Source: Enterobacteria phage RB33. From it: DNA of 64,000 nt. A program made the position numbers and the translations under genes. Under the pieces are notes generated by a model. It was not told where the DNA came from. It did no database searches and was given only the letters and a program-made list of their open reading frames with translations. Positions 43,535 to 52,048 of the stretch are shown here, piece after piece; positions within the stretch are counted from its first letter, which is position 1, and every line of letters starts with the position of its first letter. The stretch lies in sequence record KM607001; one strand, given 5' to 3'.

Positions 43535-43829
43535 GTCCCATCTCCATATCAATTAAGTCATTTATCGTTGGTTCATTATATACTGTTTCTTCATCAGTGT
43601 AAACCGGTTCTTCCGGCTCTGGCTCTACAGTTTCCCATCTAGCCGCCCACCAGGGTTTAACCCCGAAGCTTATTAAGTTCTTCATAATCAATCCAGGATT
43701 CTAGTCCTGATGGCAAATCAGATTCAATTTCCCAAAGAAGTTCTTCAATTTTCTGAAGACGATCTAATTCTTCAGCTGGAATAGTAACCATTGATGGAGT
43801 TCTTGATACACTAATATCGTAAATCATAT

Positions 43830-44045
43830 TTACCCCAGTTTAACCATGCAATCGCCGTATTTCCACTTAGAAATAGACTTTTCGCCATTAGAATAATAAA
43901 CTTCGAGTTTAGCACGGTTATTTTTAATTTGAATAATCTTTGCTGTCATCAAAGTTCCATACCCATAGTAAACTGCAACTTCATCACCTACATATACCGC
44001 GCTTCCGCGGTAATCATGGATATAATCAGTTCCTTCGAGCATCAT
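43830..44045 (-). CDS. hypothetical protein
   Basis: 71-aa ORF in track. Confidence 0.45.
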   Translation of the reverse strand: MMLEGTDYIHDYRGSAVYVGDEVAVYYGYGTLMTAKIIQIKNNRAKLEVYYSNGEKSISKWKYGDCMVKLG

Positions 44046-44306: not shown

Positions 44307-44549
44307 TTATTCCTTAATTCCTAGTACTTGTTTAAAAGTCTCGTCGTAATCAAGACTTTGGCCCGTTTGTTCTTTATATTTGTATATAATATCACTTACT
44401 TCTGATAGCATATTTTTATATGAACGAGTTAAAGCAGATTTAAGCACGCTGTATCTATCAGGAAATTTACCATGTTCATTATAATAAGCTATTGTTAATT
44501 CACGGACTGCCTTTTCAGCAGTCTCCATATATTCTTTACGCTTGGTCAT
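44307..44549 (-). CDS. hypothetical protein
   Basis: ORF in track (44307..44690); start moved to internal Met MTKRKEY. Confidence 0.45.
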
Positions 44550-44850
44550 TTTCTTCTCGGTCAAATCGGTGTTTACAATGACGACATTTATAACGAAGAT
44601 TACTAGTCTGCCAATGGACCAATTGCACCTGTTCAGTTCCACATTCAGGGCAATTAGGAACGTTTTTAGAAGCCCTTTCGCGACGTTCAACCATGACCAT
44701 TACAGAATCCCAATTAACAGGAGGGCTATAATCATCACAACCATGAATCTTTCCACGCATTTCCAGATCGTCTTCTTCACCAGCCATAATAATTTTAATT
44801 AGACTAGAATTACTTGAAGCTGCAATGTCTTCTAATAGACGCTTTTTCAT
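44536..44850 (-). CDS. zinc-ribbon protein
   Basis: CPECG...CRHCKH motif. Confidence 0.5.
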
Positions 44851-45773
44851 TTCAATACCTCAATAGCATTGCGTAAACCATTTGCTTTGGCGGTTAAAGC
44901 CTTAAGAACTTTAGTATGCTCTTCAATTTGTTTTTCAACTTCAATCAAACGAGCATTGAGATATTCGCGTTCTTCTTTCATAGTATCATTCCCATGATTG
45001 GATTTTGGTGTAGGTTTAAATTCACTAGGGTCCTTTAATTTAATAACAAATTTAGTTTCAAACAGCGAAAGACCATAATTCGTATTATCATCAAAGGATT
45101 TGACTACATCCATATCAGATAATAACACGCGTAAATTATAAGCCAAAGAACTAATAGTTTCATTGTGTTTATTAGCTTCGCGTGGTTTCATATACGGAAG
45201 ATTTTTATATATCTCGTGCGGAGCACAAATGATAATTGACAATTCAAATTGCCCATTCTGGGACGATGGAGTGAATTTAGCCGTAACCCAGTCTTTTACA
45301 TTCACATTAATAGTACGGTTATCACCATGACAAAACAGTCTACGAGAATGCTTAAAAAGCATATTCACGTTATTATTGAATTCGTGTGAAAATTCACTAG
45401 CAAATTTTTCTTTACTATCTTTAGAAAACCATTCTTCTAAATAAGTTCTTTTCACGTCGTTAATAATATTAAATGTAACAACACTAGCATTTGATACATT
45501 AGTCTCAATGTAGCTTGGATACATAAATTTTTTAACATTATTAACAGCTATCACAGAAGATAGTAATCGGGAACGTTTGAACCACTCGAGCAAAGAACCA
45601 AGAGAATGTGAATACGCATTTTGTGTATCTTTACAAATATGGTTTTCCCATCCAATATAGTCTAAAAAATCACGAAGAATATTATTGATTACTGCTCTGT
45701 GCCCGATCTGATAATTACGGTGTTTAGTAATAAGACTGTCAAAATAATCAATATAATGTTTACGAGTTTTCAT
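44847..45773 (-). CDS. protein with C-terminal coiled coil (family member 1), 308 aa
   Basis: ORF in track; same architecture as the next three ORFs. Confidence 0.6.
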   Translation of the reverse strand: MKTRKHYIDYFDSLITKHRNYQIGHRAVINNILRDFLDYIGWENHICKDTQNAYSHSLGSLLEWFKRSRLLSSVIAVNNVKKFMYPSYIETNVSNASVVTFNIINDVKRTYLEEWFSKDSKEKFASEFSHEFNNNVNMLFKHSRRLFCHGDNRTINVNVKDWVTAKFTPSSQNGQFELSIIICAPHEIYKNLPYMKPREANKHNETISSLAYNLRVLLSDMDVVKSFDDNTNYGLSLFETKFVIKLKDPSEFKPTPKSNHGNDTMKEEREYLNARLIEVEKQIEEHTKVLKALTAKANGLRNAIEVLK

Positions 45774-45825
45774 ATTCTTCTCACTTGGTTAATGGTTTAT
45801 ACTCCGAGCCATCCTTGGCTTTAAA

Positions 45826-46827
45826 TTACTTAATTAACTGTAAAGCTTGTTCAAGACGATCAAGACGATTAACGGATTCTTCCCAAATCTTTTTAGCCTG
45901 CTCATATTCTTTCTGCGCTTTATTAGAAATTTCTAGAACTTCTTTATAAGCTTTTTCTAGTGCAATAACTTCTGGACGAATTTCTATCGGTTCAGGTGAA
46001 TCATCAAGACATTCCATTAGTTCCTCAAGGGTAGTTTCTTCTTTAGGAGTATTCACAATTTCATCACATTTTTGTTGGTAAATTTCTTTATCAGTAGGTG
46101 AATAAGCACATTTCACTTCACGAAGGCTAATTATAATTTTATATCCTTCCCAACCACACATATTTTTGAAAGGATATGTATGAATACTTTTTACAGTTTC
46201 CATACAGCCCAAAACCGCCTCTAATTGATAAGTTATAGTGCTAGCAATTGAGAAAAATTTATTAATGCTCTTTTGGTTAGCTTCTGGTGTAAAAAATCCA
46301 TAATTCACAAAAATAGATACTTTATTTTTATCAAGTTCATATTCTTTTATGATAATCATATCAGAAGCCAAAGGATGAATTTGACGATAATCGCCATAAC
46401 ATAATTTAGAAGCTGATTTTAGAATTTGTCCTTTGAAAAGTCTGAAATTACTAATCCAACGACGAGTAAAAATATTCTCAGGGTCTTCTTTATTATTGAG
46501 ATGATAAGAATTAACATCACCGAACCAATTATATCCTACTACATCTTTAGTTCGTTTAATTTCTTTCCCAAAATTACCAAGAATATCCCGATTAACCAAA
46601 TATGAAAGAAGACGAGACTCTTTAAAGGTTTTCTTGATAACATCTTTATCTACACGGCTAGAAATTTTACGAACTTCATGAATAAATTTGCCGGAAGAAA
46701 CAATACCTGCATCAACACTATTGAGCCATTGATTGATAATAGAAAGAACGCTATTTTGGCCAAACATCGGTATAGCTTTATCATCAATAACGCTATTGAA
46801 TGATTTGATATATTCGTTACGAGTCAT
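45826..46827 (-). CDS. protein with C-terminal coiled coil (family member 2), ~333 aa
   Basis: start moved to MTRNEY after GAGGAG; early promoter lies inside the track ORF extension. Confidence 0.6.
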   Translation of the reverse strand: MTRNEYIKSFNSVIDDKAIPMFGQNSVLSIINQWLNSVDAGIVSSGKFIHEVRKISSRVDKDVIKKTFKESRLLSYLVNRDILGNFGKEIKRTKDVVGYNWFGDVNSYHLNNKEDPENIFTRRWISNFRLFKGQILKSASKLCYGDYRQIHPLASDMIIIKEYELDKNKVSIFVNYGFFTPEANQKSINKFFSIASTITYQLEAVLGCMETVKSIHTYPFKNMCGWEGYKIIISLREVKCAYSPTDKEIYQQKCDEIVNTPKEETTLEELMECLDDSPEPIEIRPEVIALEKAYKEVLEISNKAQKEYEQAKKIWEESVNRLDRLEQALQLIK

Positions 46828-46855
46828 ATTAATCTCCTCAGTAGAAAGTAAGAAC

Positions 46856-46885
46856 ATTATACCACATCCTTGTGGCAAAGTAAAC
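46856..46885 (-). promoter_or_regulatory. T4-type early promoter
   Basis: minus strand GTTTACtttgccacaaggatgtggTATAAT. Confidence 0.6.
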
Positions 46886-47907
46886 TAGTTCAGTGCATTT
46901 AGTGCATTGTTCAGTTTAGAACGTTGCTTTGTCAGATTTTGAACCCTTGACTGAGCTTGTTCTAACGCCTTTTCAGCTTCTAGCACTTCATTGGTAGCTT
47001 TAACGAGTTCATCATCTACTGCCTTAAGAGACTTCTCAATCGCGTCAGCGTGCCATTTTTCTACAGGTTTAAAATTTGAATTTTCAGTAGGAAGAAAACT
47101 CACTTTATTAAGTTTACATGCATCTATATTGCTTGAGCTATACATCCAAAATTTAGGATCGTTTGATAAGTAATTGGATAAATTTAAGTTATCTTGCACT
47201 TCCTGCTTTTTCTCTTGCGGGACTTCGTCCTTTCTCAAAAAATCGTATTTAAATGAAACGATCATATCAAGTTCATATGTTGTTGTATGTTCCCAATTTC
47301 GCTCAAAACGAGGTAAAATCTTAGATTGAACAGCAGCAACAACATCCATATACTTAAATGCTTCTGTCAGCTGTGATTTAAGACATTCACAAATTGAAAG
47401 AGAATTTTTAGTATTAGGCTTAAAGCTAATTCGTGCAGTTCTATTATTTTCTTTTAACGGTCTTACTTCCATCTGAAGAGTATAACCATCAAATTTCAGA
47501 TTCTTTAAGTTAATATCAGAGCCTTTTAATCGACTAGCAGTAGACAAAATTTGCTTTAATTGTCTACGGAACAGAGCAATAAATCTCCATTCAATACGAT
47601 AATGATTTGGATTGAAAAATCCAGATGATAAATCGACCTTACTTTGACCAACGCCTTGAACAATCAAAGGATTTTTATAATCAATAGTTTTACAGAAATC
47701 GGTGAGCTGTTCACGAGCAGTCATTTGTGTAATATACCCTGCTTTACTAAAATTACGCACCCATTCACTGCTATTCGTATACTTAAAGTGATGAATAACA
47801 CGATTAACTTTATCAGGGTCTAAATTATTTTGGCACAAAAATGTCATAACATCACGAGTATAACTGGCATTACGAACCATATCTTCAATTTGAGAACGAG
47901 TTTTCAT
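46885..47907 (-). CDS. protein with C-terminal coiled coil (family member 3), 340 aa
   Basis: ORF in track. Confidence 0.6.
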   Translation of the reverse strand: MKTRSQIEDMVRNASYTRDVMTFLCQNNLDPDKVNRVIHHFKYTNSSEWVRNFSKAGYITQMTAREQLTDFCKTIDYKNPLIVQGVGQSKVDLSSGFFNPNHYRIEWRFIALFRRQLKQILSTASRLKGSDINLKNLKFDGYTLQMEVRPLKENNRTARISFKPNTKNSLSICECLKSQLTEAFKYMDVVAAVQSKILPRFERNWEHTTTYELDMIVSFKYDFLRKDEVPQEKKQEVQDNLNLSNYLSNDPKFWMYSSSNIDACKLNKVSFLPTENSNFKPVEKWHADAIEKSLKAVDDELVKATNEVLEAEKALEQAQSRVQNLTKQRSKLNNALNALN

Positions 47908-47915
47908 AGTGTTCC

Positions 47916-48827
47916 TTAAGATTTAAGTAAATCAACAATTTTAATTAACTTTTCACGCTCAGATTTAGCTTTACTACTCAGTCCAGATAGTCTGAAAATT
48001 TCATCATCATATTGTTGAATAGAAATATTCAGCTCTTCAATTTGCTTATTAAAATAATCAATTTGCTCAGAATGTTTTTCGTTACTACGAACTGGTACAG
48101 GGTTTGTAGGCAATTTAGTTAAACTGGATTCATCCGGGCGATAAATTAAAATGCAATTTGAACCAATCGGGCATTTAGCACCAGATGAATATTCTAATGT
48201 TCCAGATTCTTTTAAAACTTCAAAAGCTAAACAGAGATGATGCCCCATATTGACATAATCTGTAGAGTGAGCTCTGATATAATAATCATCGCCGCGAATA
48301 CTAAATTTAAAGCATTTAAGGTCTTCTGTATTATTGGTCTTAAAAATCATTTGTTTATCTAGACCTTTAGCTAATCGAGCGCCTAATGCTAATAATCGTC
48401 GTTGATTTTCCCACAAATCTGCGATCATTTGACCAAATGATAATTTCGGCATTAGTCGACCATAAAGGTCATATCCTTTATTATAATTGCGAAGGATTTC
48501 ACTCGCATTAATACGAGACAATGCTCCAATTTTATTAAGGGCTTTCATGATGCGATTAGATAAACTCATTCCAGACCCGTTTGTTCGCTGTAAATGTTTT
48601 TCTAATCCAAATCCAATATCAACTTTAAATTTATCTAAAATTTCAGCATGAACATCTCTGTCAATAACATTCAAATCCAAAGTTGGGTTAAATCTATGAA
48701 AAAATTTATCTGGCTCTCCACGACGAAATACAGTCCATTCATTCATCATTTTTTTATTAACTAAAGATTTAATTACTGCATTGACATTATTAATTACGAC
48801 TGACATATTTTCCTCACTCAATTTCAA
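47916..48827 (-). CDS. protein with C-terminal coiled coil (family member 4), 303 aa
   Basis: ORF in track. Confidence 0.6.
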   Translation of the reverse strand: MKLSEENMSVVINNVNAVIKSLVNKKMMNEWTVFRRGEPDKFFHRFNPTLDLNVIDRDVHAEILDKFKVDIGFGLEKHLQRTNGSGMSLSNRIMKALNKIGALSRINASEILRNYNKGYDLYGRLMPKLSFGQMIADLWENQRRLLALGARLAKGLDKQMIFKTNNTEDLKCFKFSIRGDDYYIRAHSTDYVNMGHHLCLAFEVLKESGTLEYSSGAKCPIGSNCILIYRPDESSLTKLPTNPVPVRSNEKHSEQIDYFNKQIEELNISIQQYDDEIFRLSGLSSKAKSEREKLIKIVDLLKS

Positions 48828-49221
48828 TTTTACTAAATATACAGAATAAGATGGAACAGACTATATAAGCACCACACACAGATTGAACTAATACCATTCC
48901 AAAGAACCAAACAATATTATCAAACAATGTCTGTTTTACGTCGAAAGGACGTAAACTTACAGTAATATTATCACCTTTTTCTATTGAAGAATACATCTCT
49001 GGGGAAATATATTCACTAAATCTATAACCGTCTTTGAGTTCATATACAGCAATAAACGATAAACTAGACCCCTTTCCTTGAGTTCCTGTAAGGGTATTAA
49101 CTACAGTAACATCATAATCTTTATAATGCATATAATCATTAATTGCGTAATAACCATATGCAATTACTATACATAAACAACATATCAATAAATTCAATCT
49201 TTTAATTATCAACTGTTTCAT
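48814..49221 (-). CDS. hypothetical membrane protein, 135 aa
   Basis: two hydrophobic segments. Confidence 0.55.
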   Translation of the reverse strand: MKQLIIKRLNLLICCLCIVIAYGYYAINDYMHYKDYDVTVVNTLTGTQGKGSSLSFIAVYELKDGYRFSEYISPEMYSSIEKGDNITVSLRPFDVKQTLFDNIVWFFGMVLVQSVCGAYIVCSILFCIFSKIEIE

Positions 49222-49276
49222 AATAATCTCAATTAAAAGGGCTTAGAACCATTATACCATCCTTGGTATAAAGCGG

Positions 49277-49804
49277 TTATGCGAGTACCGTCTTTAACCG
49301 TTCTTCAAACTTCCGAAGAGTATTCTGGCGTTCAGCTCTTTGCTTTTTGTAAGTTTCAATACGCTCTGAAATGAGAGTGTATCGTTCATTTACTGATTCT
49401 TTCATAAAATCAGGAATTTCACGAGAAGCTTTAATCTCATCAAATTTATCAATAACAACTTGCTCTTCAGCAATTAAGTTATCATACATTAAAATATCTT
49501 TCTTGATGAACTCAATATCTTCTTGAGTTACACGAGATAATTTAGATGCTTTATCCTTTTTGTACTGTTCATTAGTATCACGAGACCAGTGTAATGTACG
49601 ATTTTTATTCGTATTCTTGTAAATTTCTACAATACCAATCTCATCGATAATAACGATCCAATTCCAACGGGATTTGTAAATTTGTCCTCCATCAACCGTG
49701 ATTTCACCTCCAATTGAGATGTCATTAAAGAACTTGCTTTGTGCTTCAGATTTAAATTTACCATCGTTGTAATTTACCAGGTTGAAAATATCTTTAGCGT
49801 TCAT
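49277..49804 (-). CDS. hypothetical protein with C-terminal coiled coil, 175 aa
   Basis: ORF in track. Confidence 0.55.
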   Translation of the reverse strand: MNAKDIFNLVNYNDGKFKSEAQSKFFNDISIGGEITVDGGQIYKSRWNWIVIIDEIGIVEIYKNTNKNRTLHWSRDTNEQYKKDKASKLSRVTQEDIEFIKKDILMYDNLIAEEQVVIDKFDEIKASREIPDFMKESVNERYTLISERIETYKKQRAERQNTLRKFEERLKTVLA

Positions 49805-50249: not shown

Positions 50250-50969
50250 TTAGGATTCTTCTAAATGTCTTTTCTGAAAAGTTGATACCATACTACGATA
50301 CGGTTCATTTGGATATCCGTGTTTTATAGCTTCCTTTGTAAATTTTCTCCATCCATATTTAGTTTCTTTCCAAAGCTCGAATAATTCATCTTCATACTGC
50401 CATATAGTTAAATGAGAACGCTTTGCAGCTTTAATTCCATTAATATGCTTTTCTTTTACTGCAGGATTGTTTAGTTTCTTTTTAATAATATTACTAACTT
50501 TTCTAACAAAAACTGGGTCCTTATATCGTTGCGAAGTTTTTATTGAAGTGTTTAATTTAGCTTCCGGCGTGGATGTGACCTCTTTCATCTTTTTCTTCAT
50601 ATGCTGTATATGATTAGGATTTTTCCATAAATTTATAGAATGCTTTTTGCATTTTATCCTAGTTTCATCTGCAACCTTTCCTCCTTCACCCCCGTATGAC
50701 AGGTTAACACAGTTTTTTCCATATTTCAATTTACCTGCCATGATATATAATATTTCAGCTTGTACCATTTTATCATAATTATCAAAAACTTCTAAAACCG
50801 TTTTTGATAATATGTGGTCATTTGACACTTTTACACGTTCTATATAATTTCCACTACCAACATACGAATCATTGATGTTATTAGTTATATGTCGACCATA
50901 ATAGTATTTCTTAATACCTGTCTTTAAATTTAATATTTCAGTTTTATAGATAGTAAAATATTTTTTCAT
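50250..50969 (-). CDS. putative GIY-YIG homing endonuclease with NUMOD-like C-terminal repeats, 239 aa
   Basis: N-terminal TIY-(x11)-YYYG-RH pattern; lysine-rich repeats resembling Seg/I-TevI DNA-binding modules. Confidence 0.5.
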   Translation of the reverse strand: MKKYFTIYKTEILNLKTGIKKYYYGRHITNNINDSYVGSGNYIERVKVSNDHILSKTVLEVFDNYDKMVQAEILYIMAGKLKYGKNCVNLSYGGEGGKVADETRIKCKKHSINLWKNPNHIQHMKKKMKEVTSTPEAKLNTSIKTSQRYKDPVFVRKVSNIIKKKLNNPAVKEKHINGIKAAKRSHLTIWQYEDELFELWKETKYGWRKFTKEAIKHGYPNEPYRSMVSTFQKRHLEES

Positions 50970-51998: not shown

Positions 51999-52028
51999 CG
52001 TTTTGTGAAAAATTTTTGAAATAAAAAA

Positions 52029-52046
52029 GGGAGCCCGAAGGCTCCC
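52029..52046 (-). terminator. GGGAGCC-CGAAG-GCTCCC hairpin
   Basis: downstream of the nucleotidyltransferase-like gene. Confidence 0.5.
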
Positions 52047-52048
52047 TA

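Follow-up and report, generated by a model that had tools for sequence, protein, structure and literature searches.

Genes of the nrdC.3 to nrdC.6 array and their relationships

The window analysed here is a stretch of 64,000 nucleotides from Enterobacteria phage RB33 (sequence record KM607001). Five open reading frames (ORFs) between positions 44847 and 49804 of the window were studied; an earlier note, made from the letters alone, had described them as a consecutive array of paralogue-like genes with differing N-terminal regions and C-terminal coiled coils. Gene names were taken from the annotated record of Escherichia phage RB32 (Tequatrovirus, T4-like), which is 100% identical to the window. 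The array is located in a long accessory block that extends from nrdC (glutaredoxin) to nrdC.11. The five ORFs, whose coordinates were given correctly and which are all on the minus strand, are nrdC.3 (44847-45773; 308 amino acids; phrog_1435), nrdC.4 (45826-46857 as annotated; 343 amino acids; phrog_1435), nrdC.5 (46885-47907; 340 amino acids; Pfam DUF7235, PF23882; phrog_2351), nrdC.6 (47916-48806; 296 amino acids; phrog_2257, with PF26899 found in relatives) and nrdC.8 (49277-49804; 175 amino acids; phrog_2274). The five are not a strictly consecutive array, as nrdC.6 and nrdC.8 are parted by nrdC.7, which has no C-terminal coil. The true start of nrdC.4 is probably the ATG at 46827 (MTRNEY...), which gives 333 amino acids and places the annotated start at 46857 about 10 codons too far upstream, because T4T is annotated with 333 amino acids and the M-TR-x-E-Y start is found family-wide, being common to nrdC.4, nrdC.3, nrdC.5 and the single-copy protein of phage Marfa described below.

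Analysis of these genes revealed that nrdC.3, nrdC.4, nrdC.5 and nrdC.6 are deeply diverged paralogues that arose by tandem expansion of one ancestral gene. Their entries in the Pfam and PHROG libraries (PF23882 or DUF7235, PF26897, PF26899, phrog_1435, phrog_2351 and phrog_2257) are families of unknown function, and each paralogue falls into one of them. These libraries keep nrdC.3/4, nrdC.5 and nrdC.6 apart; the evidence presented here unites all of them in one superfamily. The membership of nrdC.3 and nrdC.4 is practically certain and that of nrdC.5 is very likely; nrdC.6, the most divergent member and the weakest link, is a likely member.

Pairwise BLASTP among the five ORFs found nrdC.3 and nrdC.4 as the sole match (24% identity over 199 amino acids, E = 1e-4). 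Both match phrog_1435 over the full length (E = 2.2e-101 for nrdC.3 and 5.9e-167 for nrdC.4), and hhalign between the two gave 97.8% (E = 1e-12), or 97.9% without the coil. The nrdC.5 protein matches DUF7235 over its full length with 408.7 bits against a gathering cut-off of 30 (E = 2.3e-122); the match of nrdC.3 to the same family, at 11.9 bits, is below threshold and covers the coil only. Comparison of nrdC.4 with nrdC.5 by hhalign gave about 75%, and direct family-to-family comparison of nrdC.6 with nrdC.3, nrdC.4 and nrdC.5 gave less than 5%. The single BLASTP match and the low direct values for nrdC.6 are what would be expected if the five ORFs were unrelated and had come to share a head and an amphipathic helix by convergence, or through a Lys/Glu-rich composition in an AT-rich genome. 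The data support such a reading for nrdC.8. As an account of the whole array it is very unlikely in view of transitive links through syntenic single-copy genes that reach database-level significance, of head-only matches, of common structural neighbours and element order, and of collinear motifs, all of which are given below.

The link to nrdC.6 emerged solely through bridging genes of this single-copy type. Marfavirus (Marfa), Karamvirus (CC31, KMB17, CkP1) and Kanagawavirus (IME523, PEi26) each carry a single gene of 315-337 amino acids immediately upstream of nrdC.2; it always abuts nrdC.2 and occupies the position where nrdC.3 and nrdC.4 sit in RB32. The nrdC.3/4 profile matches the Marfa protein over the head (E = 1e-13), while the nrdC.5 profile matches its last 72 residues (E = 4e-12). 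Consistent with this, hhalign gave 95.1% for nrdC.4 against Marfa (93.9% once the C-terminal helix was removed), 94.6% for nrdC.5 against the Marfa C-terminus and 82% for nrdC.5 against the Karamvirus head (78% with the C-terminal helix removed). The Marfa and IME523 proteins match each other over about 250 residues (BLASTP, 7e-13; tblastn in a 2.3-Gb phage collection, 4e-7; hhalign, 97.2%). The full-length nrdC.6 profile matches CC31 (2e-10) and IME523 (5e-10), with 81% by hhalign against the Kanagawavirus proteins.

Predicted structures and motifs point in the same direction. A Foldseek search with the nrdC.6 model found an IME523 entry in BFVD (335 amino acids, E = 5e-6), which is taken to be the product of the bridging IME523 gene from its equal length of 335 amino acids. 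Three BFVD proteins, from Yersinia phage fHe-Yen9-01, Klebsiella phage Mineola and Aeromonas phage 65.2, were matched by both the nrdC.5 and the nrdC.6 models. The two models were compared by the order of their elements, which is alike: helix-helix, hairpin, helix, hairpin, linker and C-terminal helix. Alignment of 15 sequences representing all groups showed collinear motifs, beginning with an M-(K)-T-R start and F-K-x-S-R-L-L-S...A...L-x-N-F-G, followed downstream by ...I-L-x-x-x-S-R-L-x-x-G-x-x-R, by P-V-E ahead of the helix and by a C-terminal Q-R-x-K-L-x-x-A-L-x-x-L-K. The nrdC.5 family is narrow at the sequence level, as its HMMER profile found only 15 clusters among 1.84 billion representatives; a word-indexed protein search returned close T-even relatives only.

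Some limits apply to these links, above all to that of nrdC.6. Without its C-terminal helix, nrdC.6 gave only 27% by hhalign against Kanagawavirus and 7% against Karamvirus. Once the helix is set aside, structure, motifs and synteny are the main grounds for its membership. All of the bridging profiles are shallow, with one to three sequences each, and the nrdC.5 model is of moderate quality (mean pLDDT 63).

The nrdC.8 protein acts as an internal negative control. Its hhalign values against every family and bridge were below 2% in all cases; as nrdC.8 has both a coil and this composition but no link to any of them, coil and composition alone do not create matches of the kind seen among the other four. 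It looks as if nrdC.8 shares only the layout with nrdC.3 to nrdC.6, its small N-terminal domain appearing beta-rich and unlike the family head. The term paralogue-like is true of nrdC.3 to nrdC.6, and no support was found for applying it to nrdC.8. Likewise, the statement that the N-terminal regions differ holds at the level of pairwise BLAST, except for nrdC.3 and nrdC.4, but fails at the profile level: the N-terminal regions of nrdC.3 to nrdC.6 are probably one diverged homologous fold, and not unrelated domains.

C-terminal helices and predicted architecture

A crude heptad score (hydrophobicity at the a/d positions multiplied by polarity elsewhere) was calculated for 92 non-overlapping gene proxies in the 64-kb window, in each case over the 45 C-terminal residues. 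Ranks 1-5 of the 92 went to the five ORFs, with scores of 0.66-0.85; the next best score was 0.61 and the median was 0. Together with the terminal helices in the AlphaFold2 models of nrdC.5 and nrdC.6, this ranking shows that the C-terminal heptad segments proposed earlier are real and beyond chance.

All of the C-terminal segments are encoded on the minus strand. The helix of nrdC.3 is located at 44850-44990 (about amino acids 262-308) and that of nrdC.4 at 45829-45972 (about amino acids 296-343 in the annotated numbering), ending in ...RLEQALQLIK. In nrdC.5 the helix is located at 46888-47064 (amino acids 282-340); it ends in ...QRSKLNNALNALN and is preceded by a P-V-E-K-W-H motif. The corresponding segment of nrdC.6 is a predicted helical hairpin at 47919-48071 (amino acids 246-296), ending in ...EREKLIKIVDLLKS. 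In nrdC.8 a small N-terminal domain is followed by a long C-terminal helical region at 49280-49453 (about amino acids 118-175), which has a heptad score of 0.71, rank 2 of 92. The AlphaFold2 model of nrdC.5, with a core at pLDDT 70-89, has a disordered or low-confidence linker at residues 229-277 and one terminal helix of 58 residues (282-339). The nrdC.6 model (mean pLDDT 76) has a low-confidence linker at residues 228-241 and two terminal helices, one of 27 residues (246-272) and one of 18 (278-295).

A profile of the C-terminal module, built from nrdC.5, Marfa and Kanagawavirus, matches the nrdC.3 helix end to end (E = 1.5e-4 to 5e-4 among 796 ORFs). The same profile does not match nrdC.8, for which no profile link to the other coils was found. 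Sequence conservation peaks in the C-terminal helix in each of the families, and the head evolves faster. Between allele classes of nrdC.3, the helix is 70-83% conserved and the head 54-59%; the values for nrdC.4 are 56-62% and 37-47%, and in nrdC.6 the helix is 59-71% identical, compared with 26-42% for the head. Judged by this pattern of sequence conservation, the C-terminal coil appears to be more than a generic tail. In nrdC.6, 26 of the 61 invariant columns fall within the last 59 residues, and the conserved positions include the non-core residues Q264, Q265, D267, D268, E269, R272, K281, E283 and R284; because residues outside the core are conserved, a specific interface is suggested rather than a generic coil.

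Candidate counter-defence role, copy number and evolution

One gene of the array has an orthologue with a tested phenotype. T4 nrdC.5, called an early gene, counteracts Dsr1, an abortive-infection defence protein with a SIR2 domain that is thought to act through NAD+ depletion; with T4 nrdC.5 supplied on a plasmid, a deletion mutant again forms plaques on cells that carry Dsr1, and T4 mutants whose deletions include nrdC.5 stay viable on laboratory hosts and lose only certain hosts (Srikant, Guegler & Laub 2022, eLife, PMC9391042). The nrdC.5 protein of the window is 94.4% identical to NrdC.5 of T4T, has the same length and has the same flanking genes, nrdC.4 and nrdC.6; by sequence and gene order it is the orthologue of T4 NrdC.5. 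The function was shown for the T4 allele, against the Dsr1 of ECOR17. That paper (PMC9391042) does not describe paralogy with nrdC.3, nrdC.4 and nrdC.6, a domain layout or a mechanism. In the literature, no function was found described for nrdC.3, nrdC.4 or nrdC.6, and no account was found of nrdC.3 to nrdC.6 paralogy or of DUF7235. The anti-defence role suggested in the earlier note has an experimental precedent for one member, T4 nrdC.5 against Dsr1, and finds further support in neighbouring genes for counter-defence or host takeover; positive selection was not demonstrated.

Overall, it is moderately probable that nrdC.3 to nrdC.6 are a tandemly expanded family of early, non-essential accessory genes whose products act as stoichiometric, non-enzymatic inhibitors of host defence. 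In the proposed layout, each protein would begin with a helical N-terminal region that evolves fast, continue with an alpha/beta core (helix-helix, hairpin, helix, hairpin) and a disordered linker, and end in a C-terminal helix that evolves slowly. The C-terminal helix would hold each protein in a homo-oligomer, and the role of the variable head would be either to bind a defence protein of the host or to mask a phage component that is sensed by the defence. The paralogues may each be adapted to a defence system or variant of their own, duplication allowing the copies to track different targets. Two points about the basis of this proposal weigh against it: direct binding, the formation of oligomers and a split into head and stalk are inferred, and the tested phenotype is limited to one member, the T4 orthologue of nrdC.5.

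Copy number differs between genera: Marfavirus, Karamvirus and Kanagawavirus each have a single copy, Mosigvirus, Dhakavirus and Gaprivervirus have three, and Tequatrovirus has four. The ancestral state would be one copy directly upstream of nrdC.2, surviving in the first three genera, and the Escherichia coli T-even lineages would have expanded it to three (Mosigvirus, Dhakavirus, Gaprivervirus) or four (Tequatrovirus). By tblastn, nrdC.6 and nrdC.8 were present in 741 phage records and nrdC.5 in 550; nrdC.3 was found in 653 and nrdC.4 in 578, two figures that include cross-matches between these genes. Three allele classes of nrdC.3 occur among the phage records, one at 90% identity or more and the others at about 60% and 55%. 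Decay was found in several phages: nrdC.5 is frameshifted in Ec_YwIITB1 and split in SP18 (L021 1745-2810; L009 6956-7860), nrdC.4 is split in L005 and absent from RPN226 and ELT1, and nrdC.3 is split in ELT1. In the metagenomic protein P0056, nrdC.4 is deleted and the middle of nrdC.5 runs in frame into the C-terminal half of nrdC.3.

Two further, short predicted proteins, in which unrelated N-termini are joined to a near-identical T-even nrdC.5 coil, were considered as domain swaps and left unused as probable chimeric assemblies. The N-terminus of P0086 (173 amino acids, from an 803-nt contig) matches nothing in the phage collection, and that of P0207 (157 amino acids) resembles a Gram-positive membrane anchor. 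A conserved protein of about 257 amino acids, 71% identical between Marfa and CC31, is encoded upstream of the single-copy gene, at a distance of two to three genes (L014 13467-14240; L015 16639-17415) and has no counterpart in the RB32 array.

The nrdC.3 to nrdC.6 proteins evolve faster than their neighbours. In comparisons with other Tequatroviruses, dN/dS was 0.16-0.35 for nrdC.3, 0.18-0.30 for nrdC.4, 0.08-0.24 for nrdC.5 and 0.07-0.21 for nrdC.6, compared with 0.03-0.10 for nrdC.8 and 0.01-0.16 for nrdC, nrdC.10 and nrdC.11; the dN of nrdC.3 to nrdC.6 is about 3-10 times that of nrdC.8, nrdC.10 and nrdC.11. Gene-wide dN/dS was below 1 throughout, and positive selection is hence not claimed.

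The constraint seen in these rates, together with the distribution of nrdC.6, weighs against an inhibitor family and brings in the main rival explanation: the family may have a conserved role in the infection cycle, as a host-takeover factor, scaffold or regulator, with NrdC.5 countering Dsr1 indirectly, for example by hiding or altering its trigger. All 741 of the T-even-type records contain nrdC.6, with an identity of at least 95% in 451, and this universality and its conservation within Tequatrovirus fit a conserved role as well as an arms race. Several genera have retained one copy, always at the same position, and the published nrdC.5 experiment shows rescue rather than binding (PMC9391042). 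On the other hand, T4 tolerates nrdC.5 deletions on laboratory hosts, with the loss of certain hosts only; nrdC.3, nrdC.4 and nrdC.5 show patchy occurrence, pseudogene formation or replacement by divergent alleles; and adjacent genes are counter-defence factors, the neighbour pin being annotated as a Lon protease inhibitor and gp49.2 being an anti-OLD factor in T6 (PMC13096335). Considering both sides, a conserved infection-cycle role is unlikely, although it deserves more weight than any other rival.

The suggested NAD+ depletion by Dsr1 raises the question of whether the proteins are enzymes, acting for example on NAD+ or its breakdown products and so offsetting the depletion caused by SIR2 proteins in the manner of NARP-type pathways. 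Phage pathways that restore NAD+ and evade DSR1 do exist. In the family studied here, no invariant polar or catalytic-type residue was found across the 15-sequence alignment, and searches of Pfam, NCBIfam and PADLOC found no match to an enzyme or defence family, the PADLOC and NCBIfam matches being below threshold and confined to the coil. These two negative results argue against catalysis, and the coiled-coil architecture is typical of binders; an enzymatic function is therefore highly improbable.

The favoured reading, that of non-enzymatic inhibitors, resembles the repression of DSR2 by DSAD1, with which no sequence similarity was found. DSAD1 is a phage protein that neutralises the SIR2 defence protein DSR2 without enzymatic action (PMC10973363, PMC10981675, PMC11087589, PMC11290490), and it is the nearest functional analogue of NrdC.5. 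It differs in its target, DSR2, and is not known as part of a tandem paralogue family. Searches of all PDB chains with the nrdC.5 and nrdC.6 profiles and with the nrdC.4 and nrdC.8 sequences found nothing at E <0.04 and no DSAD1 match, on the assumption, drawn from the titles and abstracts of these papers, that DSAD1 chains are present in the solved DSR2 complexes of the PDB.

Counter-defence islands of T-even phages provide a second comparison. The dmd-tifA-adfA island (anti-toxin-antitoxin) and the anti-OLD gp49.2 near nrdC are likewise clusters of small genes that are early and non-essential, each gene directed against one host system, and their genes are lost or amplified under selection. 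The nrdC.3 to nrdC.6 block is located about 1-2 kb from the gp49.2 position in T4 and T6. Unlike these islands, which hold unrelated genes, nrdC.3 to nrdC.6 are four adjacent copies of one ancestor. The block exemplifies how tandem duplication, and not gene capture, can build part of a phage anti-defence island.

A wider form of the inhibitor reading is possible but tentative. The family could be a modular counter-defence platform, in which the helix builds homo-oligomers or mixed oligomers and the heads neutralise different immune sensors, NrdC.5 being directed at Dsr1 and the others at other systems, possibly of the NADase or abortive-infection type. If this were true, tandem duplication of one inhibitor gene would be a route to a wider T-even host range. 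Foldseek found structural relatives of about 300 amino acids in BFVD from T4-like phages of Acinetobacter, Aeromonas, Yersinia, Erwinia and Klebsiella, and on the same condition these related proteins would be a large unrecognised class of inhibitors.

The genes themselves and the anti-Dsr1 activity of NrdC.5 are already known. The recognition of nrdC.3 to nrdC.6 as one tandemly expanded superfamily with a head-linker-helix design appears to be undescribed so far. T4 is the best-studied phage, yet its nrdC.3, nrdC.4 and nrdC.6 are functionally unassigned; since the T4 copy of their paralogue nrdC.5 inactivates Dsr1, these three genes are now candidates for counter-defence and immune evasion. 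NrdC.5 is the only known Dsr1 inhibitor, and the family offers a testable model in which a variable head is combined with a constrained, oligomerising helix. The expansion also explains the variable number, decay and recombination of nrdC.3 to nrdC.6 among T-even phages that are otherwise almost identical and are employed in therapy and host-range studies.

Neighbouring genes and annotation of the accessory block

The genes nrdC.7 and nrdC.8 share the accessory block with the nrdC.3 to nrdC.6 family without belonging to it. A small membrane protein is encoded by nrdC.7 (48814-49221, minus strand); its ORF of 135 amino acids has an additional hydrophobic N-terminal segment compared with the annotated 105 amino acids, and T4T is annotated with 133 amino acids and as 'predicted membrane protein'. 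The nrdC.8 gene is far more conserved than nrdC.3 to nrdC.6, being at least 99% identical in 289 of the 741 phage records. Mentions of nrdC.8 in the literature are incidental and concern RNA-seq and a RegB cleavage site; a 2026 paper treated it as a nucleotide reductase.

The label 'thioredoxin' is common for nrdC.1 to nrdC.11 in GenBank records of T4-like phages and has apparently spread from the gene name. None of nrdC.3 to nrdC.8 has a thioredoxin domain, and for these genes the label is a widespread annotation error.

The nrdC.2 gene (44536-44850, minus strand) encodes a CxxC...CxxC zinc-ribbon protein and is the conserved downstream neighbour of the nrdC.3 to nrdC.6 family in every genus examined. 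Its alleles are highly divergent among otherwise close Tequatroviruses (58-79% identity, with dS near saturation). Genes 49.2 and 49.3, which in T4T are located between 49.1 and nrdC, are absent from RB32; their position (43657-44045, minus strand) is occupied by two unrelated small ORFs, one of which is annotated as 'antitoxin from a toxin-antitoxin system'. Between nrdC.9 and nrdC.10, an ORF of 239 amino acids at 50250-50969 on the minus strand resembles GIY-YIG/seg-like homing endonucleases; T4T has no gene there.

A sigma-70-like site (TTTACT-17-TATAAT with TG) is located at 46856-46884 on the minus strand, between nrdC.5 and the probable start of nrdC.4, and is a consensus match only. Sites of this kind are not in excess as a class, 45 being found in the region compared with 40.9 expected in shuffled sequence, and for this reason no claim is made on operon structure. 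A strong G+C-rich hairpin followed by a T-run is located at 52028-52047, directly after the stop codon of nrdC.11, and a further sigma-70-like site (51997-51969) follows this hairpin upstream of nrdC.10.

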